From the IMG/VR virus record IMGVR_UViG_3300045988_064400, positions 1-46,872 of that record: 46,872 nucleotides of DNA, one strand, 5' to 3'. The notes beneath the pieces are model-generated. The model had not been told where the DNA came from. It worked only from the letters and a program-made list of their open reading frames with translations, and ran no database searches. The stretch is from a virus. This document shows positions 9,876 through 33,376 of the stretch, piece after piece. A program made the position numbers and the translations under genes. How positions within the stretch are numbered: position 1 is the first letter of the stretch; each line of letters opens with the position of its first letter.

Positions 9876-10295
9876 TTAAATTTTCTCAACTACAAATGCA
9901 AGATTTTGAGTAGTTACTGCTTGTCCTCCAATAACGATTGTGAGATTTGCGGTGTCACAATCACAATTTAATCTTACAAGTGCAGATATAGGAAGTGTCA
10001 CAACATCACCGATTGCTGTTGCTGTTGCACTGGCGGTTGCTCCTTGAACTGGAGCTCCATCTTTGTATAATGTTGCTGTCACTTCTCCTACGGCAGTAGC
10101 GGTTACTGATACATTTGCATCTATATCATAGTAACCAGCTCCTCCGGCACAATTACCGATTGATACGCCATTACCACCTAACTGACAATACTTCCCATAT
10201 CTTCTAATTACTGTAGAGGGTACATAAGTACCACCAATAGCAATAGCTGTTCCTGTGGTAGTATTAACTACATATATTCCTGATTTACAACTCAT
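9876..10295 (-). CDS. Small Gly/Ala/Thr-rich protein, possibly BclA-C-terminal/C1q-like (jelly-roll)
   Basis: Trimmed to the ATG at 10295 (aaggag RBS). The C-terminus 'ANLTIVIGGQAVTTQNLAFVVEKI' resembles the BclA C-terminal-domain ending by eye. Locally GC-richer DNA. Confidence 0.5.
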   Translation of the reverse strand: MSCKSGIYVVNTTTGTAIAIGGTYVPSTVIRRYGKYCQLGGNGVSIGNCAGGAGYYDIDANVSVTATAVGEVTATLYKDGAPVQGATASATATAIGDVVTLPISALVRLNCDCDTANLTIVIGGQAVTTQNLAFVVEKI

Positions 10296-10315
10296 ATTAT
10301 TATCTCCTTTCCAAT

Positions 10316-10344
10316 AAAAAAGGGAATACCGACAAGGCATTCCC
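10316..10344 (-). terminator. Terminator or attenuating hairpin between two cargo genes
   Basis: gggaatacc (10322-10330) pairs with ggcattccc (10336-10344) at 8 of 9 positions, 5-nt loop. TTTTTT follows on the minus strand. Confidence 0.55.
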
Positions 10345-10374
10345 CCTAATGATTTAAGACCTTGTCTAAATGAC

Positions 10375-10983
10375 TTAGATGTTGCAACCGCTGTTGCAAC
10401 AAGAGTTACCCCAGTAAGGACTCATTCCTGCTGTGTATGTGGTTGCATTAGGATATCTAATTACACCACACATAGCGGACTGAAGCTGAAGTTGATTAAC
10501 CTGCGACTGCAAGCTATCAATCTTGTTCTGTGCCATAGCATCGAGAATCTTCTGTGTCTGTGCCGTTGTGTTGGCGTTGATAGCGGCAGTGTTGATAGCA
10601 CCGTTATAATTAACACCGTCAATGGCTCTCTGTGTTGTGCAGCAGCAATCAGCAACCTGTTGCTGAACTGTGTTGAAGTTACGAAGAGTTTCATAACCTA
10701 AATTACAGATTCCATTTTGTAATCCCTGATAATCATGCTGGAGATTATCATTCAATCTACCCACTGCATTTTCCAGGTTGTTGAAATTCATAGCATTACA
10801 AAGTCCTGCTTCTGTAACAGGTTCTCCGTTTACATTTCTGTTTCCACCAAAGAAACCGCCGCCACCGATAAGTAACAGGATTAAAAGGGCGAAAATCCAC
10901 ATTCCACCGCCATCTCCTCCAAACATACCGTCTTTATTATCTGTTACTGCGGCAATGTCTGCTAAAGATACTCCATCTGTCAT
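10375..10983 (-). CDS. Membrane protein with Gly-rich TM segment and Cys-rich C-terminus
   Basis: 202 aa. 'GGDGGGMWIFALLILLLIGGGGFFGG', 'ADCCCTTQ', and a C-terminal 'GNSCCNSGCNI'. RBS gaaaggag. Confidence 0.6.
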   Translation of the reverse strand: MTDGVSLADIAAVTDNKDGMFGGDGGGMWIFALLILLLIGGGGFFGGNRNVNGEPVTEAGLCNAMNFNNLENAVGRLNDNLQHDYQGLQNGICNLGYETLRNFNTVQQQVADCCCTTQRAIDGVNYNGAINTAAINANTTAQTQKILDAMAQNKIDSLQSQVNQLQLQSAMCGVIRYPNATTYTAGMSPYWGNSCCNSGCNI

Positions 10984-11029
10984 AATATGACACTCCTTTC
11001 ATTTTTTATTTATTTGAATTTGCAAATTC

Positions 11030-17428: not shown

Positions 17429-19510
17429 CTATATCACCTCTCTCACTATTCTTCCGAACTGGCGCTGTCCAATTTGAACAGTTAGTCCGGATTTCTGCAA
17501 AGAATAAATCATTGCATCACCAATTTTAGAATAATCTACTGTTGACGAATGAATAACGCCATCAACTTTTGATGTTATTCTTGTATTCATTCCATCAATG
17601 GTTCCTTGTAATGATTTCTGAATATTTTTCATTGGATTTTCATCATCAAATCCTTCCCATATACCTTTAGCAAGAAAGACACCAATCTCATCATGCATAA
17701 GTTTTGATGGCGAATGTATACCAAAGAAAGATTTTAATTTATTTAGAACGTCTTTTCCAAAACCTTCTATCTTATTTTTTATCCATGAAGCCATATCATT
17801 TATACCATTCCATAAGCCTTCAACTAAATTCTTTCCAACATTTTTTATTCCAATCAATTTATCAGTAATTGTATTCATCAATGTTTCTCCAATTTTCATT
17901 CCAATGGAAACAAGCTTGAATGTATTCTTAAGTATTCCTGATGCAAGATCTTTTATTATGCTTACACCAACACTTATAAGTCCGGATGCTAATTTTATTA
18001 AACCTTTTACAATTGCGGCTATTATCTTTGGCAAAGATTTTATCAGCGTTGGTATATTTTTAACAAGTCCATCAGAAAGTGACTTAATAAGTTTATACGC
18101 TGAAAGTATAAGTTTTGGAGCATTGTTTGCTATGCCGTTTACTATTTTCTTAACAAGTCCTGGAAGTGCGGAAATCAACATAGGCAATGATTTCAAAATG
18201 CCATCTTTTAATGCGTTTAGTAATTTCATGCCAGTATCTATGATTACTGGAAGATTATCCATAATGACATCAATAGCTGTGGATAATCCTTGTACCAGAA
18301 AAGTTAAAAGTGCTGGCAAACCATTTCTTAATGCATTTATTAACAGAGATAAAATAACTGATAACTGAGATGTTATCAACGGAGCTTGCTCCCCGATAAA
18401 GGATATAATTTGCTCTACATAAGTCTTTATATTATCAAGCAATGTAGGTCCATAGCTTTGCAAAGAAGTAGCAACAATGTTAAATAGCGATAATATACTA
18501 TTTATAAGTCCAGGTCCAACAGAATTTATAAGCTCGGGCAAATATCCTAATAGTTGTGGGAGAAGTGCGTTTATTAAATTTCCAACCCCTGTCAACGCTA
18601 TTTGTACTCTAGGAAGCAAGTTGTTTAATGCGTTCACTGCTGAATCAACAAACTGGTCAACTAATTCTTCAAAATTTGCATCATCACGTGACATACCAGT
18701 AAGCAGATTAGTCCAGGCAGATTTTGCAGCATTAACAGAACCTTCTATCGTGGAAGATGCTTCTTTTGCAGAAGTTCCTGTTATTCCAAGATTTGTTTGC
18801 ACTTTATGAATAGCCTCAATCATTTTATCAAAAGTGACAACTTTATCAAAATTAGCTCCTTTACCCTTAGCAACAACTAATGTATCACCAAGAACTCCAG
18901 AATCATTTATAAGCCTTGCCATTTCTGATTTTGTTCCACCATACCCAAGCTTTAAGTTGTCCAACATGGTGAAGTTGTCTTTTGCAAAACCTTGATAAGC
19001 ATTTTGTATCAGCTCCATGTCAGTTCCCATTTTATTAGCATTATCAGACATATCAATTATTGCTTTATTTGATATTTTAGCTGCCTTTTCTGTATCCCCT
19101 CCAAGTCCTTGTAAAAGTGATGCACTAAATGATGTTGTTAATTCCATATAATCATTGGCAGAAATTTGTGCCGTCTTATAAGCTTCGTCTGCGTATTTTT
19201 GAACCTGCTTGCTAGATTTTTTGAAAAGGGTATCTATACCTCCAGCAAGCTGTTCATATGACGCATAAGCTGATACTGATTTGCTCACGACACCACCAAT
19301 GGCAGCGGCTGCCGCTCCTGCAGAAACAGCTGTTGCTTTAAGCGTTGCCGCAGTTGCTTTACCTGCAACTCCTAAAGAACCGCTGAGGGCATTACCGATC
19401 TTATTTAATTTGCCTGACGAAGTGTCTACCTTTTTTTCTGCTTCTTTTAATCCTTGCTCTATTCCAGAACTATCAAGCTCTGTGTCAATTACAACTTTTC
19501 CATCTGCCAT
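17429..19510 (-). CDS. Tail tape measure protein
   Basis: 693 aa, the longest helical/low-complexity ORF, with Ala/Gly-rich TM-like stretches. It follows the chaperone pair. Confidence 0.8.
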   Translation of the reverse strand: MADGKVVIDTELDSSGIEQGLKEAEKKVDTSSGKLNKIGNALSGSLGVAGKATAATLKATAVSAGAAAAAIGGVVSKSVSAYASYEQLAGGIDTLFKKSSKQVQKYADEAYKTAQISANDYMELTTSFSASLLQGLGGDTEKAAKISNKAIIDMSDNANKMGTDMELIQNAYQGFAKDNFTMLDNLKLGYGGTKSEMARLINDSGVLGDTLVVAKGKGANFDKVVTFDKMIEAIHKVQTNLGITGTSAKEASSTIEGSVNAAKSAWTNLLTGMSRDDANFEELVDQFVDSAVNALNNLLPRVQIALTGVGNLINALLPQLLGYLPELINSVGPGLINSILSLFNIVATSLQSYGPTLLDNIKTYVEQIISFIGEQAPLITSQLSVILSLLINALRNGLPALLTFLVQGLSTAIDVIMDNLPVIIDTGMKLLNALKDGILKSLPMLISALPGLVKKIVNGIANNAPKLILSAYKLIKSLSDGLVKNIPTLIKSLPKIIAAIVKGLIKLASGLISVGVSIIKDLASGILKNTFKLVSIGMKIGETLMNTITDKLIGIKNVGKNLVEGLWNGINDMASWIKNKIEGFGKDVLNKLKSFFGIHSPSKLMHDEIGVFLAKGIWEGFDDENPMKNIQKSLQGTIDGMNTRITSKVDGVIHSSTVDYSKIGDAMIYSLQKSGLTVQIGQRQFGRIVREVI

Positions 19511-19533: not shown

Positions 19534-20094
19534 TTAAGAATTATAAAATTCATCGTTTATTTCTTCCATTATACTTTCGTCAACTTTGTTCGTCTTAGTA
19601 GGCAATGCCCATTCATTTTTTTGTTGTTTGCAAATATCATCATATTGTTGTGAATCTTTATGCCAAGCCCTCATTTGCATTATTTGCTTTATTTTTGTGT
19701 CATCTGGTAGCGATAAAAATAAAGCTTTGAATAAATGCCAATGCATATCACATACCGTTAAATCTATACCGTATGCGGACATAAAGGAACCAACAATATA
19801 TTCTCCGTCTAAAACGTAGTCTATAACTACATCCCCATGTGACGTATTACCCTTTGGTGTAGCGTTTGGATTTGAATAGAAATTTAGTAATTCTACAAAT
19901 ACATTATCAGGCAGATGAAACGCTTCCAGCAAGGTCATGTCCTTAAACACAAACAAACAGTCTAATATCGAATTTCTTCGATCTTTTATAACCTCTCCAA
20001 ATTTTATCCATGTTCTGAAGTCTGTGTCTAATAAAAAAGACTCACCATCTACCTCAATGGTTTCTGGCAAGCCCTTATTTCGTAAATCAATCAT
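19534..20094 (-). CDS. Gp15-like tail assembly protein
   Basis: 186 aa. 'LPETIEVDGESFLLDTDFRTWIKF' resembles the Bacteriophage Gp15 family, from memory. It sits between the chaperone and the tape measure gene. Confidence 0.55.
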   Translation of the reverse strand: MIDLRNKGLPETIEVDGESFLLDTDFRTWIKFGEVIKDRRNSILDCLFVFKDMTLLEAFHLPDNVFVELLNFYSNPNATPKGNTSHGDVVIDYVLDGEYIVGSFMSAYGIDLTVCDMHWHLFKALFLSLPDDTKIKQIMQMRAWHKDSQQYDDICKQQKNEWALPTKTNKVDESIMEEINDEFYNS

Positions 20095-20495: not shown

Positions 20496-20978
20496 TTAGA
20501 CTTCTGCTTGAAATGTCGGCGAACCGGCTTCTATCGTATAAGTTCCTTTTTCGATATCTCCGCCCATCTTAAGGGAGAATGTTATTTTACCATCTACAGT
20601 GTTAAGAACTTTAGATGTTAATGTTGCAATACATCTCCAAGCTTTCTTTCCTGTTCCACCAAAACACAAAAGCAGAGGAACTTGTGTATCAGCCCCAGTT
20701 GGTAAATTATACAATTCTCCTATGAGGAAATCATATATTGGGTTTCCTTCATAGCAAGCAATTTCCTGTGGAAGTTCCGGTTTATTTGAGTTGATTTCTG
20801 TAACTGCATTTTCGTAGCAGATATAATCCATATCCTCTTCCTGCTCACCGACAGTTAACTCAAAAATCGTAGAATAATCAATTCTTTTCCAAACTGAAGC
20901 GGCAAAGGTGGAATCTTTTTGCACGTCTAAAAATGGAATAAACTGATTTCTTGTCAATTTCTTCATTGCTTCTGGCAT
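20496..20978 (-). CDS. Major tail (tube) protein
   Basis: 160 aa, in the canonical position after the tail-completion gene. A paralog lies at 29404..30108. Confidence 0.65.
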   Translation of the reverse strand: MPEAMKKLTRNQFIPFLDVQKDSTFAASVWKRIDYSTIFELTVGEQEEDMDYICYENAVTEINSNKPELPQEIACYEGNPIYDFLIGELYNLPTGADTQVPLLLCFGGTGKKAWRCIATLTSKVLNTVDGKITFSLKMGGDIEKGTYTIEAGSPTFQAEV

Positions 20979-24532: not shown

Positions 24533-25636
24533 CTATAAATCATAACCTGGAACCTTTGCTCTGTTCCATTGCCTACGAAGATTTGCTTGTTTTGATGTGT
24601 ATCCATAAGACTGCTTCAATCTCTTTAACTGTTTTTTCTGTTCTTCCACGTCTTTTCCTGCTTCTTGTAATGCTATAATCTGTTCTTGTTTGTATCTCAT
24701 TTTGGTTTCAAGATTTCTCATCACTTGACTTGCTTCATACCTTGTTATTTCTTTATCGCCTATTTTTATTTTTTCGTTTGAATAGTCTTTTATGTTTTGC
24801 AATTCTTTATCATCATATGTTGGAGGTGATACACCAAGAATTATATAAGATATTCCATGTTGGCAATTGCAAGTTCCAAAATGTCTTTTTAATCTTGCAT
24901 TTATTGAATTGTATTTGGAAAGACTATATTGTCTTCCTTGATACGGTAAATGGTCTTCCGCACATAATCCATGAGCATCTAGTTCTATGCCATCTGCACC
25001 GTATTGTTTTCCTGCTTCTAATCGCACCCCGTAGTTGACTTGACGAACTCCTTCTAAAATGTTCATCCTTGCCGCACTATCTAATCTTCTTGTTCGTCCG
25101 CTTGAATATTGAACCCTTGCTCCTTGTGTTGCTTTATCGAGAATAATCCTTTCTAAAGCATCTTGATATCCGTCCATTCCGGTTGCTACTGTGTCTATCG
25201 CTAAATCAATAGCATCTTTATAATCCTTGGCAATGCTAGTTGTATTTGCCATGTTTGCAAATGTGCCAGCAGTTAAATTTCGGACAGAACTAATATAATT
25301 CTGTATTGCGGTATTTTTAGAAAAAACAGGTTGAGTAATTCCCTTATGCTTATATAAATAAGCAACATCTTTGTATATTTCACCGGCACTTTTATCATAC
25401 AGTTTATAAATATCTTGCAGGGCTAATCCGGATTGCTTTGAAAGGTATAGGTTTATTTCTTCAATGTTATTACCCATCTTAGCCATCTGTTCTAACCTGT
25501 GCATATTGTCTTTATCTAGTTTACCAATCTCTTTTATCTGTTCTGCCATTTTGGAAAGATAAAAGAGATTGACTTTTTCGAATCTATCAGCAATTCTAAA
25601 AGCAATGTTCGTTAATTCATCCTTTGATAAAGCCAC
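24533..25636 (-). CDS. Minor capsid / head morphogenesis protein (SPP1 gp7 / minor-capsid-2-like)
   Basis: 367 aa, immediately after the portal gene. 'GLCAEDHLPYQGRQYS' resembles the family motif, from memory. Confidence 0.65.
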   Translation of the reverse strand: MALSKDELTNIAFRIADRFEKVNLFYLSKMAEQIKEIGKLDKDNMHRLEQMAKMGNNIEEINLYLSKQSGLALQDIYKLYDKSAGEIYKDVAYLYKHKGITQPVFSKNTAIQNYISSVRNLTAGTFANMANTTSIAKDYKDAIDLAIDTVATGMDGYQDALERIILDKATQGARVQYSSGRTRRLDSAARMNILEGVRQVNYGVRLEAGKQYGADGIELDAHGLCAEDHLPYQGRQYSLSKYNSINARLKRHFGTCNCQHGISYIILGVSPPTYDDKELQNIKDYSNEKIKIGDKEITRYEASQVMRNLETKMRYKQEQIIALQEAGKDVEEQKKQLKRLKQSYGYTSKQANLRRQWNRAKVPGYDL

Positions 25637-25642
25637 TTAACA

Positions 25643-27229
25643 TCACTCCTCATTATTAGATTGATTATTCTGATTTAATGTGTCTTGTTTATCTGTAGGA
25701 TTATATTCTAAAGAATTGTCTTTAGTTTCTGTTGAACTAAACAAGTCGTTCATCATGTTCTGCTGTGCCTGTTCTTGCATCTTATCAATCTCTAATTGTG
25801 CGGCTTCTACAGATTCGCCAGTATACCAGGAACGAACTTCAGCCTTGCTTAAAATACCTGCAGTTTGAAGTGTCAATTTATGCTCCAATTCTGTATCTGT
25901 ATCCGTCAAAATGCTGTCTTTCCAATCTATATTTGTATCGTAATCTCCTGCCGGTGCTAGATTATACAATTCTGTAAAAACATTCATTGCATATACAACA
26001 TCTACCAAACATTGGTCTAAAGCTTTCTGTAAATCGGAAACCGTGATATAGGTTCTTTGCTTAACAAGTTTGATTTCGGTAGCTGTTCTTGCGTCTAATT
26101 CTACTTGGGACAATGTTCCTCTTGCTAGTCCTATCATATCTTCAATCTTATTTGTATAAACATTGAGTCCATTTATATAATTCGCATCTCGCAAAGAAGG
26201 AGCCCATTCATGATAGGTTTCGTCAGAACCTGTATCTAATCTACGATATAATCTGTCTTGTAAGTCATCCAAGTTAGTTTTTGTTCCATAGTAACCTTCA
26301 CTATATGTTACTGCTGTTGGGTCAACGTCAATTGCTAATTGTCCGCCTTTGTATTCCCAATCAAGTCTGCTAAATTGTTCATCAGCTTTTTTAATCAATT
26401 TTGCCGCAGGATTGAAAATTGAAATTCCAAGCGGTGATTTCATATCGACATTATTAGCAAGGGGAACTTTGAAATATCCATACAATGGCTTTTCTGTGTT
26501 CTCAATCGTTACCGGTTCTTCACTAATTCCATTCCATCGGTCAATGGATGATAATGGTATTTCTTGTCCAAGTTCCTGCTCTACTTCATCATCCGGTGTG
26601 CGTAACTGTGCTTTGAATGCCTTATTCTCCACCACTACCATTTTCTTATCAAAAGAGAATGTCTGTCTTTCTACTTTTGTATAGACATATTTTCCGGAAG
26701 TGAACTGGTCAAAAAAAGCAACGTCAATGATATTTCCATCATCATCAAAAGTTATAGGATAGAACTCCCCTTGCTGGTTAAAATCAAGATATAACTGTCC
26801 ATTGCTCATGTACGGCTTTACAATCATCCCACCAAGAGCCAATGCTTTCTCAAAAGATTGAGGTAGATTTTTAATAAGCCTTTTTTGGTAAATATCATTC
26901 AAGAATTTAGCTCTTGTATCAATGACATCATCTTTATCCTGTTCTATAGAATCTTCAACTCCAGGCTCTGAGATAGATGTTTCCATTTCAGACAATGTCT
27001 GCTGTTGCAAAGATTGGCATATCTGTTTAGGCAATCCTAAAGAATATACACCTTTAACATCGTCAAGCCAAGGACTTTCGTCTTTATACATGGATTTCCA
27101 TACATCCAAGGCATTCGACATTTCGTCTGATATGCCGGTATCATCAATTTCAAAAGCATCGGTAATTGATTTATACCCAATCATTTTTCCGATGGCTTCA
27201 TAGATTAAATTCAATAATTTTTTAATCAT
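25643..27229 (-). CDS. Portal protein
   Basis: 528 aa. Size and position upstream of the minor capsid/scaffold/capsid genes. Acidic Q/N-rich C-terminus. Confidence 0.75.
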   Translation of the reverse strand: MIKKLLNLIYEAIGKMIGYKSITDAFEIDDTGISDEMSNALDVWKSMYKDESPWLDDVKGVYSLGLPKQICQSLQQQTLSEMETSISEPGVEDSIEQDKDDVIDTRAKFLNDIYQKRLIKNLPQSFEKALALGGMIVKPYMSNGQLYLDFNQQGEFYPITFDDDGNIIDVAFFDQFTSGKYVYTKVERQTFSFDKKMVVVENKAFKAQLRTPDDEVEQELGQEIPLSSIDRWNGISEEPVTIENTEKPLYGYFKVPLANNVDMKSPLGISIFNPAAKLIKKADEQFSRLDWEYKGGQLAIDVDPTAVTYSEGYYGTKTNLDDLQDRLYRRLDTGSDETYHEWAPSLRDANYINGLNVYTNKIEDMIGLARGTLSQVELDARTATEIKLVKQRTYITVSDLQKALDQCLVDVVYAMNVFTELYNLAPAGDYDTNIDWKDSILTDTDTELEHKLTLQTAGILSKAEVRSWYTGESVEAAQLEIDKMQEQAQQNMMNDLFSSTETKDNSLEYNPTDKQDTLNQNNQSNNEE

Positions 27230-27247
27230 GACTTATTTCTCCTTATA

Positions 27248-28123
27248 TTATTCAGTTACCGTTGTATCTGTGTCTGTTTTAGGTGTAAGTGCCTCTAATG
27301 CTTCAATTCTTTTCAACAAAGATGCTACATCATCTGTAATTTTTATCACTTTTTCGTTTCCATCAATCGTGGTAGTAATAGGAGTTGCAAGTTCATAATA
27401 AAGATATTTACCTTGCATTGCTTCCTTAAATTGTTCAGCGGAACGTGTCGTGTTGAAACCTATTGCTCCGTCTCCACTACTAGCTATATAGTTGGTATCT
27501 ACTTTGCCTTGGCTAGTTAACTTATTCCAAGATACTGTCAAATAATCTCTACAATATATATTCGAAGCTGTTTCTGTATCTAAATGAACTTTAATTTTAT
27601 CTTGTATGGCATAGGTGTAAACACCATAAGCCACCTGTTCTCCATAGTCTAAACTTCCTAAATCAACTCTACCAACTTTCTGTATAAACTGATTTTCATT
27701 TACTTCATTCTGTATAGGACATTCTTTAGGTACACTCCATCCCAGCATTTTAATATCCATCATTTCTGAGGATTGTTCTGAAAGGCTTTCTTTTATTTCT
27801 GTATCATCATATACTGTATCAGTAAATACTGCATTTTCTGGTACATCACTTTTTACTGTATGACTTCCTAATTGTTCTGATAATTCCGTTAAAGAAGTAG
27901 ATTGTTTTTCTAACTTTTCTCCTACTGTTTTTGCTTCTGCTGGAACTCCTTCTTCTGTCAATGTTGGGTCTGTCAGTTTCAAATCTACTGTCTTTAGATT
28001 TCCTACCAAAGGAACATTGTTTATAGACGGTTTATTCTGCAAGTCATTATAGTTACCTGTTCCTTCTCCGCCTCCACTTGTTTCAATCTTTCTAAATCCA
28101 GGTATTACTACTCTTTGTGCCAT
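27248..28123 (-). CDS. Fibre-like protein (tail-fibre N-terminal motif) in the TerL-portal insertion
   Basis: Trimmed to the ATG at 28123 (aaggag RBS; avoids a 100-nt overlap). 'YNDLQNKPSINNVPLVGNLKTVDL' resembles the N-terminal repeat of phage fibres. Confidence 0.55.
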   Translation of the reverse strand: MAQRVVIPGFRKIETSGGGEGTGNYNDLQNKPSINNVPLVGNLKTVDLKLTDPTLTEEGVPAEAKTVGEKLEKQSTSLTELSEQLGSHTVKSDVPENAVFTDTVYDDTEIKESLSEQSSEMMDIKMLGWSVPKECPIQNEVNENQFIQKVGRVDLGSLDYGEQVAYGVYTYAIQDKIKVHLDTETASNIYCRDYLTVSWNKLTSQGKVDTNYIASSGDGAIGFNTTRSAEQFKEAMQGKYLYYELATPITTTIDGNEKVIKITDDVASLLKRIEALEALTPKTDTDTTVTE

Positions 28124-28140
28124 TTTTAATCTCCTTTCAA

Positions 28141-28461
28141 TTAGTTCAAAATATTTAATTCTTCGTATGTTTTGTATATTTTTGGAAATTGTATCGCTAT
28201 CCAATCTACCATCGTTTCGTTGTGTCCCCATTGTGTGCAATTTTCAAAATTTGATTGCAAACCGCTTTCCGAAAGGTAAGCGTGTATAATTTCATGCCTT
28301 AACTGTTTCTTCATTAAATATTCAAAATTTCCAACATTGTTATAGTTGTCTTTTCTTATAACGATTGTCTTACTTGTATTGTCACACCACCCATCTGTAT
28401 TTGAATTTTTCAAGGTTTTTCGTTTAATCTTATAAGTAGTACCCAATATATTTGCTTTCAT
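28141..28461 (-). CDS. Small HExxH metallopeptidase-like protein
   Basis: 106 aa with 'LRHEIIHAYL' (HExxH) followed by 'HNET'. Confidence 0.55.
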   Translation of the reverse strand: MKANILGTTYKIKRKTLKNSNTDGWCDNTSKTIVIRKDNYNNVGNFEYLMKKQLRHEIIHAYLSESGLQSNFENCTQWGHNETMVDWIAIQFPKIYKTYEELNILN

Positions 28462-28535
28462 GATTTCGCCTCCTCCTTGACTTTTTAGTCTTTCTAAATC
28501 ACGATATTATTACTGTTGTTTTTTTCTTAATTAGT

Positions 28536-29399
28536 CTACCAACTATTTTCTTCATTGCTTCCTGTATACTCCTCGCCAGTATTAGCAAGCAGAAACCACG
28601 ATTGTTCACTATCTTTCTTTGATCTAATAATCATATGCTTCGTACCATTTAGTTTAATAAACCGTTGCGTCAACAATGCTGTTGGCATTGAACATATCAT
28701 CCACATATTTTCTACTACGTGAGGAACAAAATCAGAACCGCATAACGAAAAATCTCTTAGTACAAGAATTCCATTGTCCCTAGTTTTTCTTGATGGTGTA
28801 TTAGGAGAAGCCATTACCGCATCTTGAAAATATTCATATAATGTTTCTGTAAGTGCTGTACTTACTGTATCTATACCTCCGTGAAAATTTAAAGCACCCA
28901 AAACACCGTCTTCATTTCCTGACGCAATTCCGGCGGAATACATATCATAACGTATTTGTCCAAATTCTAATGCTGCATCGTTTGGGGGAATAATAACCAT
29001 ACCGTTATTAAATCCATCTGACATTATCGAACTGTGAACATATGCAACAAGTAAATTATTATCGAAAATAAATATTTGCAAGTCAAAAACATTATTATCA
29101 CCGTACCAATCAACCATATTTGTTCCTATATAAACTCGCATCTCAGACAACACATAATCATCAGTGCGTTGCCAAGGTATTAAATGTACGAAAACTCTTC
29201 CTTTATGACAAATTTCCCAGTAATGAAATTGTTTGGAAGCACCTTTATAGATTCCAACTTCAACTGTAAATCCATCTTCTGCGGATAATCCAAAAATTTC
29301 TAACCATACATCCTTTTGTCCTTCTGGATCATTTTTTATCAAGGTCAATTGTTCTGTGTGTGTTTTTAATTTTCCAAGGTCAACATTTATTTCTTTCAT
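28536..29399 (-). CDS. Hypothetical protein (TerL-portal insertion)
   Basis: 287-aa ORF. I recognised no motif. Confidence 0.55.
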   Translation of the reverse strand: MKEINVDLGKLKTHTEQLTLIKNDPEGQKDVWLEIFGLSAEDGFTVEVGIYKGASKQFHYWEICHKGRVFVHLIPWQRTDDYVLSEMRVYIGTNMVDWYGDNNVFDLQIFIFDNNLLVAYVHSSIMSDGFNNGMVIIPPNDAALEFGQIRYDMYSAGIASGNEDGVLGALNFHGGIDTVSTALTETLYEYFQDAVMASPNTPSRKTRDNGILVLRDFSLCGSDFVPHVVENMWMICSMPTALLTQRFIKLNGTKHMIIRSKKDSEQSWFLLANTGEEYTGSNEENSW

Positions 29400-29403
29400 A
29401 TAA

Positions 29404-30108
29404 TCAACTCCAATCTACACTTGTGTAAGTTTTCAAAGTTTCTTTGTTCTTCAAACACTTTATTCTAATTAAATCTATAACATCTCCCGATGCATTTACT
29501 TTATTATTCATATAGTATAATACAGAAATCGGACATATTCCAATTTCTCTTATTGTACTATAGGGCAAATTTGTATCATCTTCACCGACTGATATTTCAG
29601 CTATTGTACCACAAGATTGAGTAGGTTCTGGTGTGTTCTGTGTGCTAAAAACTACTTTTCCATCAGTAATCTTATAAAATCCTTTGGTTATTTCTCCTCC
29701 AATTTTCATGCTGAAAGATATTCTGCCGTCAATTGTGTTCAGTGTCTTTCCTGATATTGTGCATATGCCACGCCAAGCACGTTTTTCGGAACCTCCAAAT
29801 GCCAAGATAAAAGGCACTTTACAATCTTCTCCTATAGGAAGATTATATAATTGGTCAAACATAAAATCATACATAGGATTTCCTTCGTATAATGCTATCT
29901 CCTGTGGAAGTTCTGGCTTATTAGATGTTACAACTGTTATTGGATTTTCGAAACAGATATAATGTATATCTTCTTCCGTCTCGTTTATTGTTAATTCAAA
30001 AATCGTCGAATAATCAATTCTTGTCCAATTTGAATTTTCAAATGTTTTGTCTTTATTTATATCCAAAAAAGGAATGAATTGGTCTTTTGTCAATCTAGTA
30101 ACACTCAT
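29404..30108 (-). CDS. Major-tail-protein paralog with a ~75-aa C-terminal extension
   Basis: Trimmed to the ATG at 30108 (ggaggtg RBS). By manual alignment, 93 of ~150 positions are identical to 20496..20978 (e.g. 'SNKPELPQEIA.YEGNP.YDF'). Confidence 0.7.
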   Translation of the reverse strand: MSVTRLTKDQFIPFLDINKDKTFENSNWTRIDYSTIFELTINETEEDIHYICFENPITVVTSNKPELPQEIALYEGNPMYDFMFDQLYNLPIGEDCKVPFILAFGGSEKRAWRGICTISGKTLNTIDGRISFSMKIGGEITKGFYKITDGKVVFSTQNTPEPTQSCGTIAEISVGEDDTNLPYSTIREIGICPISVLYYMNNKVNASGDVIDLIRIKCLKNKETLKTYTSVDWS

Positions 30109-30135
30109 TAGGCATTTCACCTCCTCTGTCTTTTT

Positions 30136-30164
30136 ATAATACAACATTGCAAATAAAATTACAA
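30136..30164 (-). promoter_or_regulatory. Possible promoter (TTGTAA-N17-TATTAT) at the head of the TerL-portal insertion
   Basis: The reverse complement reads ttgtaa-ttttatttgcaatgttg-tattat. AT-rich context, so this could be a chance match. Confidence 0.3.
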
Positions 30165-30170
30165 ATCAAA

Positions 30171-31436
30171 TTATTTTCCTTTTCGTTTCCATACTCGTTC
30201 CATTGCATACCTTGTCATATCAATACTGTGGTTATTATCATCCGGGTACACCGAAGTAGGATTGCCCTCTTTATCCAATTCATACTCGTATTTCTTAAAT
30301 TCTTTAGCAGTTTCCGGGCATCTTACTGGGTCTATAACAATCTTGATAAGGGATTGTAGCCACTTCATGCCATATCTTACACTATCTGGGCCTTTGTCTG
30401 CACCCCTTGCGTTTATTCCATAACTTCTATAATCTGCGATGGACTTATTCTCAGCACTATCACAAGTTACTACATCATATCTTCCAAGATTGAATTTATC
30501 TTTGAGGATTTTTCCTGTTTCACTATTCCGCATTTTGTTTGTCCGGAACTCTTCGAAAATATACAATATCATTCTAGCACTATCATAATGCATACAACCA
30601 TAATGGAATGGATCTGGAAACCATCCCCAGTCAACTCCTCTATATAATCTATCAAATCTTGCTATTTCTTCATCTGTTATTTGTCTAATTTCAAGATTAT
30701 CGAATACTTCTGTACCATTTCCTATAGGAATGCCAAGATACTCATATTCATAGGCTTTGGGATTCACCATTTTAAGCCATTCAGCATCATCTATAAACTG
30801 TTGACCTAACCATTCTTTCGGTGATGTTAGATAAGTTGTTTGAGATACAAGTGTATCTTTTCTCAATTTCTCTTTCTCTATATAGTCATTTGCCCAATTC
30901 TGTCTTGATTTAGGCGGGTTCATTGATTTGAACACAACGAAGTCATTTCCACCACGAATGACAGATTGTTGTACTTTACGGATTTCTTCTTCTCCAGAAA
31001 ATTCATCAAACTCCTCAAACCATAAGTAACCTATATATCCAAATGGCACTTTGATTGATTTTGATTTTGCCGCTTTATCCAATCCCTTGAATATAATCTT
31101 TTGTCCAGTTGGGAGATATTCGGCTCTCATTGGGGATTTAGTCAATTTCCATAAACGAGAAACGCCTAATATATCAATAGCCCATTCTATTTGTGCAAAT
31201 ACTGATGTTTCAAGTGTATCTCCTACTTTTCTATAGATGACAGCGTGTTTATTTTTATTTTCCTTCTTCATCATGTTATAGATTATCTCTACAGACACAC
31301 ACGAAGATTTCAAGGAACCACGTCCGCCAGTCAAATCATAATAAGTATGCTTTCCAGCTTGTATATCCTTATGTACACTATAAAATGCTTTTCCAATGCA
31401 CTTTGAAAGTGGTCTACCCTTAATTGCTTTCTTCAT
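30171..31436 (-). CDS. terL: Terminase large subunit (PBSX/XtmB-like)
   Basis: 421 aa. Walker-A-like 'TGGRGSLKS'; C-terminal nuclease-like region 'DDNNHSIDMTRYA'. It overlaps the TerS 3' end. Confidence 0.85.
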   Translation of the reverse strand: MKKAIKGRPLSKCIGKAFYSVHKDIQAGKHTYYDLTGGRGSLKSSCVSVEIIYNMMKKENKNKHAVIYRKVGDTLETSVFAQIEWAIDILGVSRLWKLTKSPMRAEYLPTGQKIIFKGLDKAAKSKSIKVPFGYIGYLWFEEFDEFSGEEEIRKVQQSVIRGGNDFVVFKSMNPPKSRQNWANDYIEKEKLRKDTLVSQTTYLTSPKEWLGQQFIDDAEWLKMVNPKAYEYEYLGIPIGNGTEVFDNLEIRQITDEEIARFDRLYRGVDWGWFPDPFHYGCMHYDSARMILYIFEEFRTNKMRNSETGKILKDKFNLGRYDVVTCDSAENKSIADYRSYGINARGADKGPDSVRYGMKWLQSLIKIVIDPVRCPETAKEFKKYEYELDKEGNPTSVYPDDNNHSIDMTRYAMERVWKRKGK

Positions 31437-31875
31437 CTAAATCATCCTCAATCTCAGCATCATCCGGAATATCGTCTATAATATTAACTGCACATTCTAC
31501 ATTGATATTCTTTGCTCTTACATCTAACCTCTTAGCCAACTCACTTGCGGCTTTTGTTCTTTCACTCAATGCTGCTTCTAAATCAAATTGGTCTTTCTTC
31601 TCTCCACGCATTACTGATGTGAGATATTCCATTACTTCCTGAATATCAGCAATCTTTGCATCATCCAATCTTTCCCTTATTGCTTCGATGTAATTTTGAA
31701 TTCTTACATCTTTTAACAAGCGTGAACCTTGTGCATATGCTCCTTTAGGCATATATCCTGCACTAATAGATGATTGTGTCACGTTATTCGTTTTCATATA
31801 TTCTTGTACGAATAAAATCTGTCTTGGATTAAGATGTTTCTTACATTCCTTTTCTTTTTCAGTCTCTTTTCTCAT
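31420..31875 (-). CDS. terS: Terminase small subunit (Terminase_2-like)
   Basis: 151 aa. 'LNPRQILFVQEYMKTNNVTQSSISAGY' HTH typical of small terminases. Directly upstream of TerL. Confidence 0.75.
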   Translation of the reverse strand: MRKETEKEKECKKHLNPRQILFVQEYMKTNNVTQSSISAGYMPKGAYAQGSRLLKDVRIQNYIEAIRERLDDAKIADIQEVMEYLTSVMRGEKKDQFDLEAALSERTKAASELAKRLDVRAKNINVECAVNIIDDIPDDAEIEDDLDEESN

Positions 31876-32089
31876 TTTTTACCTCCTGCCATAATCTATT
31901 CAATTCACTTGTTGCTTTTATTTGAGAAGCTGTATTTATTAGTTCTTTCTTATTATGAACTAATTTATACATTTTAATAAATCTATCTTGCTCCGCAGAA
32001 TAAAATTGATATGTGTTTATATACACCAATACTCCTTTTTGTTTTAATGCTAATTGTAATTTATACATTAGCTTAGATAAATCTGCCAT
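31859..32089 (-). CDS. Hypothetical protein (first late gene)
   Basis: Trimmed to the ATG at 32089, which follows aaggaggtg. Confidence 0.55.
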   Translation of the reverse strand: MADLSKLMYKLQLALKQKGVLVYINTYQFYSAEQDRFIKMYKLVHNKKELINTASQIKATSELNRLWQEVKNEKRD

Positions 32090-32112
32090 ATGCACACCTC
32101 CTTTTTAGTATT

Positions 32113-32141
32113 ATTATAATATACTAATTATTTTTTGTAAA
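32113..32141 (-). promoter_or_regulatory. Late-operon promoter TTTACA-N17-TATAAT
   Basis: The reverse complement reads tttaca-aaaaataattagtatat-tataat. It lies between a terminator hairpin and the RBS of the first packaging-module gene. Confidence 0.6.
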
Positions 32142-32170
32142 TAAAAGAAGGATGTTTTTATTTACATCCT
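32139..32170 (-). terminator. Terminator ending the sigma/MazF unit
   Basis: A 7-bp stem: aggatgt (32149-32155) pairs with acatcct (32164-32170), 8-nt loop. TCTTTTATTT follows on the minus strand. Confidence 0.5.
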
Positions 32171-32188
32171 CCCGCATTTTCGTAATTT

Positions 32189-32509
32189 TTATTTATCTTT
32201 TATATGTTGCAGATACATTTCGTGTTGTTCTTGTTTTGTTAAATTAGCATACTTATCTTCATGTACTGAATATCTATATTCTATATGCCCGGCAAGTAAT
32301 ATTATTAAAACAATAATTATTCCTAATGATATATTAAGCAATTTTTCTTTTTTATGTTTTTCATTATTATTTACTTTCCATAATTTTTTATGATTATTTT
32401 GAGATTTCCATTTTTTCCAACACGTCTCCCCCATTCCTATTTCTATTGCTTTCGGGTTTCTTAATTTTCGTCCACATCTTTTACAAGTTGCCTGCTCTAA
32501 TTCATTCAT
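32189..32509 (-). CDS. Zn-ribbon (CxxCGR...GxGxxC) protein with a C-terminal TM helix
   Basis: 106 aa. 'CKRCGRKLRNPKAIEIGMGETCWKKW' is DUF6011-like, from memory. TM segment 'LLNISLGIIIVLIILLAGHI'. Confidence 0.55.
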   Translation of the reverse strand: MNELEQATCKRCGRKLRNPKAIEIGMGETCWKKWKSQNNHKKLWKVNNNEKHKKEKLLNISLGIIIVLIILLAGHIEYRYSVHEDKYANLTKQEQHEMYLQHIKDK

Positions 32510-32510
32510 A

Positions 32511-32855
32511 TTATTTTTTACCTCCTAATGATAATTGTAATTTGATGCATTCGTTTAATATCTTCACATCATCTTTATTTATTGTTCCACTATAATTTTT
32601 TAGATATTTTTTATCGACTGTCAACATCTGCTCCGGCAGACAATAATTTAATCTATTATTTATTTGAAAACATAATCTACCATGCATTGGAAGATAATCT
32701 TTCTTTGTTGTTAATGGAACAACTTGAACTACATCACAATATAGATTATTCTTATCGTTACTAACAACAACACAAGGTCTAAATCCTCGTTGATAATGTT
32801 TTCCGTCAGGAAATAACATATCAAGGTCTAACCAATATACATCTCCGCGTCTCAT
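32511..32855 (-). CDS. mazF: MazF/PemK-family endoribonuclease toxin homolog
   Basis: 114 aa. 'RRGDVYWLDL...GFRPCVVVSNDKNN...VVPLTT...LPEQMLTVDKKYL' aligns by eye along the full length of B. subtilis EndoA/MazF. Confidence 0.8.
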   Translation of the reverse strand: MRRGDVYWLDLDMLFPDGKHYQRGFRPCVVVSNDKNNLYCDVVQVVPLTTKKDYLPMHGRLCFQINNRLNYCLPEQMLTVDKKYLKNYSGTINKDDVKILNECIKLQLSLGGKK

Positions 32856-33376
32856 ATTGCTTCCTCTACTTTCTTTTTTGCCCTGCTTAATAGTCTGGAT
32901 ACTCCAGCTTGAGATATTCCTATTATGCTAGCTATCTCAGCTTGATTCATTCCTTGATAGCGCAACTTACAAACAGTCAATTCTCTTTCATCTAATATAT
33001 CTTCTAAATCAAATAATATTAAACTATCTTCTAAATATTCTGTTCCAAGCATATCATCAAGGCACAATGAATCTCCATCTCTTTCATACACCTCCTGGTC
33101 AAGGCTTATAGTATATGAAGATATTTTTCTTTTATCACATTGGGCTAATCTAAAATATGTTTTCACAACATTAGTAAGAACGGCACTAGCATATGTATTA
33201 AATTTCACTCCACTGTCTTTATTATAAGACAATGCCGCTCTACATAATCCCAAAGCTAACTCTCCATACTCTTCATTTGGATTATACCCCCTACCGATAT
33301 ATTTTGAACCAATATACCAAATAAGTCCTTCATTATCCTCAACTAACTTTCTTTGTTCATCGTTTAATTTTTTCAT
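32852..33376 (-). CDS. Sigma-70 family RNA polymerase sigma factor
   Basis: 174 aa. Region 2 'EEYGELALGLCRAALSYNKDSGVKFNTYASAVLTN'; region 4 'LRYQGMNQAEIASIIGISQAGVSRLLSRAKKKV'. Its stop overlaps the mazF start (ATGA). Confidence 0.8.
   Translation of the reverse strand: MKKLNDEQRKLVEDNEGLIWYIGSKYIGRGYNPNEEYGELALGLCRAALSYNKDSGVKFNTYASAVLTNVVKTYFRLAQCDKRKISSYTISLDQEVYERDGDSLCLDDMLGTEYLEDSLILFDLEDILDERELTVCKLRYQGMNQAEIASIIGISQAGVSRLLSRAKKKVEEAI

Follow-up and report, generated by a model that had tools for sequence, protein, structure and literature searches.

Why would a phage carry a second gene for its major tail (tube) protein, 8.4 kb from the canonical one and inside the head and packaging module? 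The question is raised by an uncultured gut-type phage, IMG/VR virus record IMGVR_UViG_3300045988_064400, which was analyzed over its full length of 46,872 nucleotides (nt) and is called the window below. Four open reading frames (ORFs) lie between the genes for TerL and the portal protein in this genome, and the first of them encodes a paralog of the major tail protein with an additional C-terminal part. We show by sequence comparison that the paralogy is real, that the paralog is under purifying selection, that its C-terminus takes part in a modular exchange, and that the C-terminal domain present in the window (C70) is coupled to the next gene (p287) across unrelated phages. The reading that we favor, with about even confidence that it is correct, is that the paralog is an accessory tube subunit serving as a display platform for adhesin-like partners.

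A second tube protein gene at the TerL-portal junction

The junction and the canonical tube gene are laid out as follows:

30171-31436, minus strand: TerL, the upstream border of the junction (Pfam Terminase_3, E 4.8e-36, and Terminase_3C, E 5.7e-13; phrog_3717)
30109-30170, minus strand: 62-nt spacer between TerL and the paralog, with GGAGG at 30120-30124, 11 nt before the ATG at 30108
29629-30108, minus strand: tube domain of the paralog, amino acids 1-160 (homology to the major tail protein; phrog_3099)
29404-29628, minus strand: C-terminal extension of the paralog and stop codon (linker QNTPEPTQSCG, then C70)
29407-29616, minus strand: C70, 70 amino acids, residues 165-234 of the paralog (recurs on two other carriers)
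28536-29399, minus strand: p287, 287 amino acids, the partner gene of C70 (directly downstream of C70 carriers)
28141-28461, minus strand: HExxH protein, 106 amino acids (motif codons 28282-28296; phrog_1233, E 1e-20)
27248-28123, minus strand: fiber-like protein (N-module, amino acids 1-108, at 27800-28123; motif at 27998-28051; phrog_24985)
25643-27229, minus strand: portal, the downstream border of the junction (phrog_533, E 5.7e-95; Pfam SPP1_portal on the orthologue in contig L086)
20496-20978, minus strand: canonical major tail (tube) protein, 160 amino acids, undecorated (synteny; phrog_3099; match to phage PMBT5)

The coordinates of the four ORFs agree with those given in a preliminary description of the window, which had been made from the sequence without database searches. 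All four frames are intact, and each has a Shine-Dalgarno sequence ahead of its start codon.

The gene at 20496-20978 is the major tail protein by position, because it follows the head-tail genes and precedes a chaperone-like pair (Phage_Gp15) and a 693-amino-acid tape measure. A spacer of 25 nt separates it from the chaperone genes. Its product is 62-84% identical to 115 ordinary homologues and shows a weak match (26% identity, E 1e-7) to the protein annotated as major tail protein in Eggerthella phage PMBT5.

The first junction ORF is a diverged relative of this protein. BLASTP aligns the two over 156 positions without gaps, with 93 identities (60%; E 3e-74), which is exactly the number that the preliminary description had counted by eye over about 150 positions, so that the alignment holds under pairwise scoring. 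Beyond the aligned part the paralog continues for 77 amino acids, close to the 75 or so first estimated. Both proteins match phrog_3099. As had also been proposed, the extended form is not a frameshift product; it is encoded by a separate, relocated gene (29404-30108). The cluster of the paralog comprises 149 sequences, and the paralog sequence exactly as in the window was seen on 20 contigs.

The tube domain of the paralog is under strong purifying selection and is as conservative as the real tube gene. Among eight alleles, the ratio of nonsynonymous to synonymous substitution rates (dN/dS) is 0.01-0.11 at dS 0.2-0.4, compared with 0-0.07 for the canonical tube gene. Of the 69 alignment columns with 95% or higher conservation in the 115 ordinary tube proteins, the paralog retains the family residue in 59, and most of the ten changes are conservative. 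Fifteen substitutions are fixed and specific to its clade, including D49H, E59V, T144F and P152V. It is 57-66% identical to the ordinary proteins (median 60%), whereas these have a median identity of 76% among themselves. The paralog thus appears, from these identities, to be an old or fast-diverged branch. A recent duplication of the tandem type was rejected, because the ordinary tube proteins all lie at a similar distance from the paralog, and the resident one is no closer than the rest.

An exchangeable C-terminus and the C70-p287 pair

The tube domain of the paralog is joined to different C-terminal parts in different alleles. In a search of 5.8 billion clusters, the paralog clade comprised only four. 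Two of these encode proteins of 234 amino acids with the C70 extension of the window type. In P0004 (369 amino acids), the tube domain is succeeded by some 200 C-terminal residues of unrelated sequence, and the next gene is another partner, p177, which is related to the second gene of other junction pairs (31% identity, E 2e-8; both phrog_5417). P0003 (359 amino acids) ends in 180 residues that match the C-terminal half of the window's fiber-like protein at 49% identity (E 6e-42); here the linker of the paralog is fused to a fiber gene of the P0264 type, with the join exactly at ...SCG|SVATSYEPYF. At the DNA level, identity between the window and other alleles falls from about 28/30 to about 9/30 in a single 30-nt step just past the tube domain. 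The C-terminal cargo is thus swapped by recombination at sharp breakpoints. Short acidic tails extend the C-terminus of some ordinary tube proteins, which indicates that this end tolerates extensions. The extension in the window has no Pfam match. Junction proteins of 224 and 228 amino acids in contigs L015 and L024 were considered as free-standing versions of the P0004 cargo and dropped, as they have no similarity to its C-terminus.

C70 is very rare and occurs on unrelated carriers. When 1.84 billion representative proteins were scanned in full with HMMER, it was recovered in only two other clusters, which correspond to two carrier types of 117 and 206-211 amino acids. Their C70 domains share 51-60% identity with the C-terminal 70 residues of the paralog (E 1e-18 to 3e-25). 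The N-terminal parts are unrelated, and consist of a 48-residue helical stub in one case and a 135-residue domain with a proline-rich linker in the other.

The partner gene is similarly restricted. The p287 family consists of 65 homologous clusters, all with at least 40% identity and none named, and its members always lie directly downstream of a C70 carrier. The preliminary description saw no recognizable motif in this protein, and we likewise found no Pfam, NCBIfam, PADLOC or PHROG match; no p287 was found in GTDB genomes. Outside the TerL-portal junction, the pair has two settings. In prophage-like contigs (L088-L090, L098 and L099), a p287 homologue with 80% identity is the last gene of the tail module, in the order 1627-amino-acid tape measure, DUF6711, 800 amino acids, 67 amino acids, 117 amino acids, p287 homologue, holin and endolysin. 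In HK97-type phages (L091-L093), p287 lies between an HNH gene and the terminase, after the protein of 206-211 amino acids.

The boundary between the two genes is itself conserved. At the DNA level, GATTGGAG before the stop codon and ATGAAAGAAATA at the p287 start are found in every context, and the stop and start codons are separated by 4 nt in the window, L088, L092 and L104, and by 0 nt in L091, where C70 ends in ...DWSV. The last codons of the paralog, GAT TGG AGT (Asp-Trp-Ser), contain GGAG. Since this stop/start junction is conserved across contexts, we conclude that the GGAG in the final C70 codons is the ribosome-binding site of p287. Translation of the two genes is thus coupled, because the Shine-Dalgarno sequence of the second sits within the last codons of the first. 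The mobile unit is C70 plus p287, grafted onto different N-terminal carriers, of which the tube protein is the one used here.

A variable junction within the late region

Junctions were compared among 47 loci, comprising eight distinct contigs with a portal at least 96% identical to that of the window and 39 with a portal of 53-82% identity. In total, 85 IMG/VR loci were fetched via the paralog and TerL, and further contigs via individual proteins; all window proteins were mapped on them. Of the eight close contigs, L001, L003 and L004 carry the four genes of the window. Other contigs differ by replacement or loss: in L087 the paralog ends in another C-terminus and the second gene is p177, followed by the HExxH and fiber-like genes; L005 has lost the HExxH gene; L002 has lost the fiber-like gene, the last 30 codons of which are fused in frame to the HExxH ORF; and L086 has one fusion gene between TerL and portal. 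L007 (TerL 98%, portal 96%) lacks the paralog, p287 and the HExxH gene, and contains a small DUF3310-like ORF and a truncated fiber-like gene. A small protein with HxSYYGGKDNPYExIKVIxAW, which we take to resemble DUF3310, is a recurrent tenant of the junction (L007 4613-4831, L015 9633-9899, L016 9624-9935, L032 2185-2481, and others).

Among the 39 more distant loci, the paralog and p287 were found in none. The HExxH gene is present in 27 of them, usually alone in a gap of about 350-420 nt, and in nine the distance between TerL and portal is just 23-110 nt. Others contain an HNH endonuclease, other two-gene pairs or longer fiber-like genes. The junctions of L044 (6382-10300) and L050 (9227-13149) measure 3.9 kb and hold the HExxH gene, several fiber-like genes, a holin-like membrane protein and Amidase_3, so that a lysis-type pair lies inside the packaging and head module.

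Gene order also varies. In L104 (portal 91%, tube protein 93%), TerL is followed by the HExxH gene, the paralog (86%), a p287 homologue (72%), a 179-amino-acid protein consisting of the fiber N-module only, and the portal. The paralog-p287 pair is thus downstream of the HExxH gene in L104 and upstream of it in the window. We conclude from these comparisons that the TerL-portal junction is a hotspot, and that the window holds at least three independent units. The four genes had first been described as a single insertion led by the paralog, a view that does not survive the mosaic of at least three independently moving units seen in relatives. Nor is adjacency of TerL and portal the norm that had been assumed, at least for this type of head module. 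SPP1, the archetype for such head modules, has genes 3, 4 and 5 in between, which are likewise accessory ORFs without assigned function; unlike the genes of the window, they encode three small proteins of 71-89 amino acids and include no paralog of a structural protein.

The HExxH gene is an independent companion of the head and packaging module and an old resident of the junction. The motif LRHEIIHAYL, already pointed out in the preliminary description, is genuine and invariant across 11 diverse homologues with identities down to 34%. Residues H56, E57, H60, E65 and E82 are invariant among these, as are L6, G7, D23, G24, I33, R55, A61, G67, L68, A89, Q91 and K94. The protein has both the HExxH motif and a downstream acidic third ligand, as zincins do, and its sequence is compatible with a small zincin. 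No peptidase family was matched in Pfam or NCBIfam, phrog_1233 has no assigned function, and a profile search of the PDB gave only a weak, non-peptidase match. Cultured phages of Clostridia and other anaerobes encode homologues (35-45% identity), which are always annotated as hypothetical. In C. difficile phage phiCD111 the gene follows that for the minor head protein, in Roseburia phage Jekyll it is at the TerL-portal junction, and in Blautia phage Montmirail it is upstream of TerL. More generally, phrog_1233 is found at varying positions in phages of C. difficile, Roseburia, Blautia, Flavonifractor, C. perfringens, Enterococcus and Fusobacterium (records with the protein include NC_028905.1, LR596902.1 and ON453898.1). 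The SPP1-type head modules that contain the HExxH protein have no annotated prohead protease.

The last junction gene encodes a modular protein that may be described as fiber-like. Its 481 homologous proteins (280-495 amino acids) have the N-module, residues 1-108, in common at about 80-88% identity, and differ in core and length. An optional insert of about 150 amino acids ending in EEGSVATEYEPYFPSN occurs in the family, and a variable core is followed by a conserved C-terminal helix, SLLKRIEALEAL. The family thus combines a conserved attachment module with exchangeable distal modules, in the manner of fibers. The motif that the preliminary description called fiber-type, YNDLQNKPSINNVPLVGN, lies at residues 25-42 and belongs to the conserved N-module of all these homologues; the label itself has no annotated family or fold behind it. 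The protein has no Pfam match, phrog_24985 has no assigned function, and the N-module is without match in annotated phages. An AlphaFold2 model (predicted local distance difference test score, pLDDT, 45) was unusable and had no Foldseek match. The only hints come from relative L024, which matches DUF6273, and from junction cargo of L044, which weakly matches Phage_head_fibr. Apart from the N-module, the C-terminal helix is the most conserved part of the family. In two independent deletion or fusion derivatives, the final 30 or so codons of the fiber gene (SLLKRIEALEAL...TVTE/ESE) are retained in frame; they are joined to the HExxH ORF in L002 and L012 (130 amino acids) and to the tube paralog in L086 (P0003).

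Every gene of the window is on the minus strand. The late region runs from TerS and TerL through the four ORFs to the portal, minor head protein, scaffold, major capsid protein and head-tail genes, and on to the 160-amino-acid tube protein, two chaperone-like genes and the tape measure. Its further features are:

31420-31875, minus strand: TerS (Pfam Terminase_2)
downstream of the portal, minus strand: minor head protein (Pfam Phage_min_cap2)
19534-20094, minus strand: chaperone-like protein, second of the pair (Pfam Phage_Gp15)
17429-19510, minus strand: tape measure, 693 amino acids

The junction genes are tightly packed and point in the same direction as the late operon. The candidate promoter at 30136-30164, earlier thought to head the block, is a 9/12 match to consensus, and the frequency of such sites does not exceed that in shuffled sequence (39 found in 7.5 kb, 36.6 expected). 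The sigma-70 consensus may not apply, because the phage encodes its own sigma factor. No terminator-like site was found in 25000-32146, and hence none within the block; the sole terminator-like hairpin of the region from 25 to 32.5 kb is at 32173-32146, upstream of TerS. Inserted genes flanked by a promoter and terminator of their own, as in a moron, were not found, since promoter-like sites are at chance level. The block looks like part of the late operon rather than a self-contained unit, because the promoter is at chance level and the only terminator-like site lies upstream of TerS. The best promoter-like site (TTTACA-17-TATAAT, 11/12) is at 32141-32113, directly after the hairpin; the two precede a 78-amino-acid ORF and TerS. 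The stretch 32113-32173 may be the start of the late operon, including the junction genes.

Scans of Pfam, NCBIfam, PADLOC and PHROG placed none of the four junction proteins in a functional family, and sequence searches of the PDB returned nothing usable for them. A DNA search with the 5.8-kb region against 50,697 GenBank phages gave no match. As the portal search returned only two contigs from metagenome-assembled genomes, the host is placed no closer than "uncultured Clostridia".

The second tube protein as a proposed display platform

If the paralog is an accessory tube subunit, it would join the tail tube alongside the 160-amino-acid major tail protein or in place of some of its copies. 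The C70 domains would then point outward and recruit p287, giving side decorations on the tail shaft that could aid adsorption to the host surface, and the fiber-like protein would be a further, independently anchored virion appendage. Decorations and appendage together could add weak, multivalent adhesion. The junction, in this proposal, would be a variable slot that gathers accessory genes, filled in the window by the paralog and p287 as a unit, the resident HExxH gene and the modular fiber-like gene. The preliminary description had suggested alternative tail decoration or a host-range function. The C-terminal exchange, the tie between C70 and p287 and the tail-module context favor adhesion; we infer that the paralog is built into the tube, that C70 binds p287 physically and that the role is adhesive. 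A wider form of this proposal, in which a second tube subunit is a universal display scaffold with its cargo swapped on a spare gene, so that the lineage varies the targets bound by its tail shaft, and C70-p287 is a portable docking pair used on three virion scaffolds, is more tentative, and we consider it somewhat more likely to be wrong than right.

Several observations weigh against the display platform. Searches with the tube-family profile and with phmmer matched no solved structure, so that the tube fold of the paralog is read from sequence and synteny only. The p287 model from AlphaFold2 has a mean pLDDT of 66, with only the N-terminal half confident, and Foldseek searches of PDB and BFVD returned nothing at E < 0.1. 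The C-terminus of P0004 gives a discoidin-like hint that is not significant (Pfam F5/8 type C, E 0.14; PDB, E 0.3). P0003 was seen on a single contig (L086) and could have arisen as a rare deletion product instead of being an established design. In the HK97-type phages, C70-p287 lies upstream of the terminase and outside the tail module. Finally, close relatives that lack the paralog (L007 and L010), with plain, undecorated tube proteins of 161-162 amino acids, presumably infect well; any function of the paralog would therefore be accessory.

Decorated tube subunits that bind host carbohydrate are known from lambda, SPP1, p2 and the 936 phages, and weak multivalent adhesion by tube extensions has been shown for lactococcal phages and proposed for lambda and SPP1 (PMC6669499). 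SPP1 is the closest in kind: it too is a siphophage with a head module of Terminase_3, SPP1_portal and Phage_min_cap2, and it has a plain tube subunit (gp17.1) and a second one (gp17.1*) with an extra C-terminal domain, exposed on the SPP1 tail (PMC6669499). Unlike in the window, both forms come from one gene by programmed frameshift and have an identical tube domain, whereas the second subunit here is a separate gene 8.4 kb away in the head and packaging module, 60% identical, with a docking-type extension tied to another gene. The Ig-like (immunoglobulin-like) domain of lambda gpV, the p2 extension and TpeX of the 936 phages are likewise C-terminal additions to tube subunits, and the 936 extensions bind the host surface and have exchangeable distal modules (PMC6669499). 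These extensions, however, have recognized folds (Ig, or a BppA-like carbohydrate-binding module) and sit within a single tube gene or a frameshift product of it, while no fold could be assigned to the extension in the window, where the essential tube gene is undecorated. Two annotated major tail protein genes also occur in actinobacteriophage clusters EL, DJ, AM, AU, AW, BI and CC (PMC11080557; PMC10652937). In those phages, which we compared by description only, both genes are in the tail module (gp17 and gp19 in phage Damascus) and no exchangeable C-terminal cargo or partner gene is described. Nocturne116, a literature candidate for a second tail tube, proved irrelevant.

The window protein thus resembles known decorated subunits in having an extra C-terminal domain, and departs from them in that the decorated form does not arise from the tube gene itself by fusion or frameshift. 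To our knowledge, tail-shaft decorations are built into a single tube gene in every studied case. What is different here is that the decorated subunit is a separate paralog at the TerL-portal junction with cargo exchanged by recombination, and that one such cargo is a rare small domain genetically bound to a partner gene also found on non-tube carriers. If the proposal is correct, a relocated, freely recombining display copy would separate the essential polymerizing function from host-surface binding, and a single sharp breakpoint would allow the cargo to be replaced while the essential tube gene stays as it is. C70-p287 would be a previously undescribed portable docking pair in unrelated phages, and a small natural connector for attaching proteins to phage particles, with possible engineering use. 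The proposal also offers a testable function for "hypothetical proteins" common in gut metagenomes, as the four junction proteins and C70 have been unannotated so far.

A second reading places the paralog in the virion as well, and makes p287 an assembly chaperone for C70, itself the functional tip, rather than a displayed adhesin. A fiber gene followed by the gene for its chaperone is a classic arrangement, and p287 is immediately downstream of C70 and translationally coupled to it. In gp37-gp38 of the T2/S16 type and in Mu Tfa, the partner is encoded next to the fiber tip and either docks as an adhesin or aids folding. The likeness to the window, a small C-terminal tip domain with its partner as the next gene, is one of arrangement only, and C70 is carried not by a long fiber but by a tube protein, a 48-residue stub or an unrelated 135-residue domain. 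Moreover, p287 is four times larger than the domain to be folded and is at least as well conserved as C70 (identity between the window and L088 is 80% for p287 and 59% for C70), and C70 is too small and too conserved for a receptor-binding tip. We consider a chaperone role unlikely.

We attach the same low probability to a paralog that forms a ring or hub of its own at the neck or tail tip, with p287 projecting from it like a collar or side-fiber platform. The outlying position of the paralog (57-66% identity, against about 76% among ordinary tube proteins) and its 15 fixed substitutions could reflect altered ring-ring contacts, but 59 of the 69 family-conserved positions are kept. Such a ring would in any case differ from the display platform in location and copy number only.

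Less probable still is a non-structural role for the paralog and p287, as an intracellular decoy or inhibitor against tube-sensing or other host defenses. Tube-sensing defenses such as DSR2 exist, mimicry would also need a strongly conserved tube-like surface, and the junction gathers accessory genes. A decoy against tail-sensing defense had been raised in the preliminary description, and no result obtained here supports it: fiber-like C-terminal swaps are not what a decoy needs, exchangeable fiber-like or carbohydrate-binding-like cargo would be superfluous for one, and C70-p287 also occurs as the last part of a tail module, where its carrier lacks a tube domain. There were no PADLOC matches, in a library that covers defense rather than counter-defense.

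Neutral or decaying cargo, consisting of a tube gene duplicate and hitch-hiking ORFs, is a very improbable account of the block and is largely refuted by the selection analysis: close relatives do show deletions (the fiber-like gene in L002, the HExxH gene in L005, all but the fusion gene in L086), but dN/dS is 0.01-0.11 in the tube domain of the paralog and 0.05-0.5 in C70, the four intact frames have ribosome-binding sites, and the paralog recurs in a 149-member cluster and in identical form on 20 contigs.

Two minor features lie elsewhere in the window. The G+C content is 0.42 at 10001-11000, compared with about 0.32-0.35 in the rest of the window; the ORFs in this stretch (9876-10340 and 10375-10983) have no Pfam match, and no tRNA or Rfam family was found in the window that could account for the rise. 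Upstream of the terminase genes are a DUF6011 protein (32189-32509), a PemK/MazF-like protein (32511-32855) and the sigma factor (sigma-70 r2/r4, 32852-33376), and this trio of sigma factor, MazF/PemK-type toxin-like protein and DUF6011 is kept in L086 and L104.

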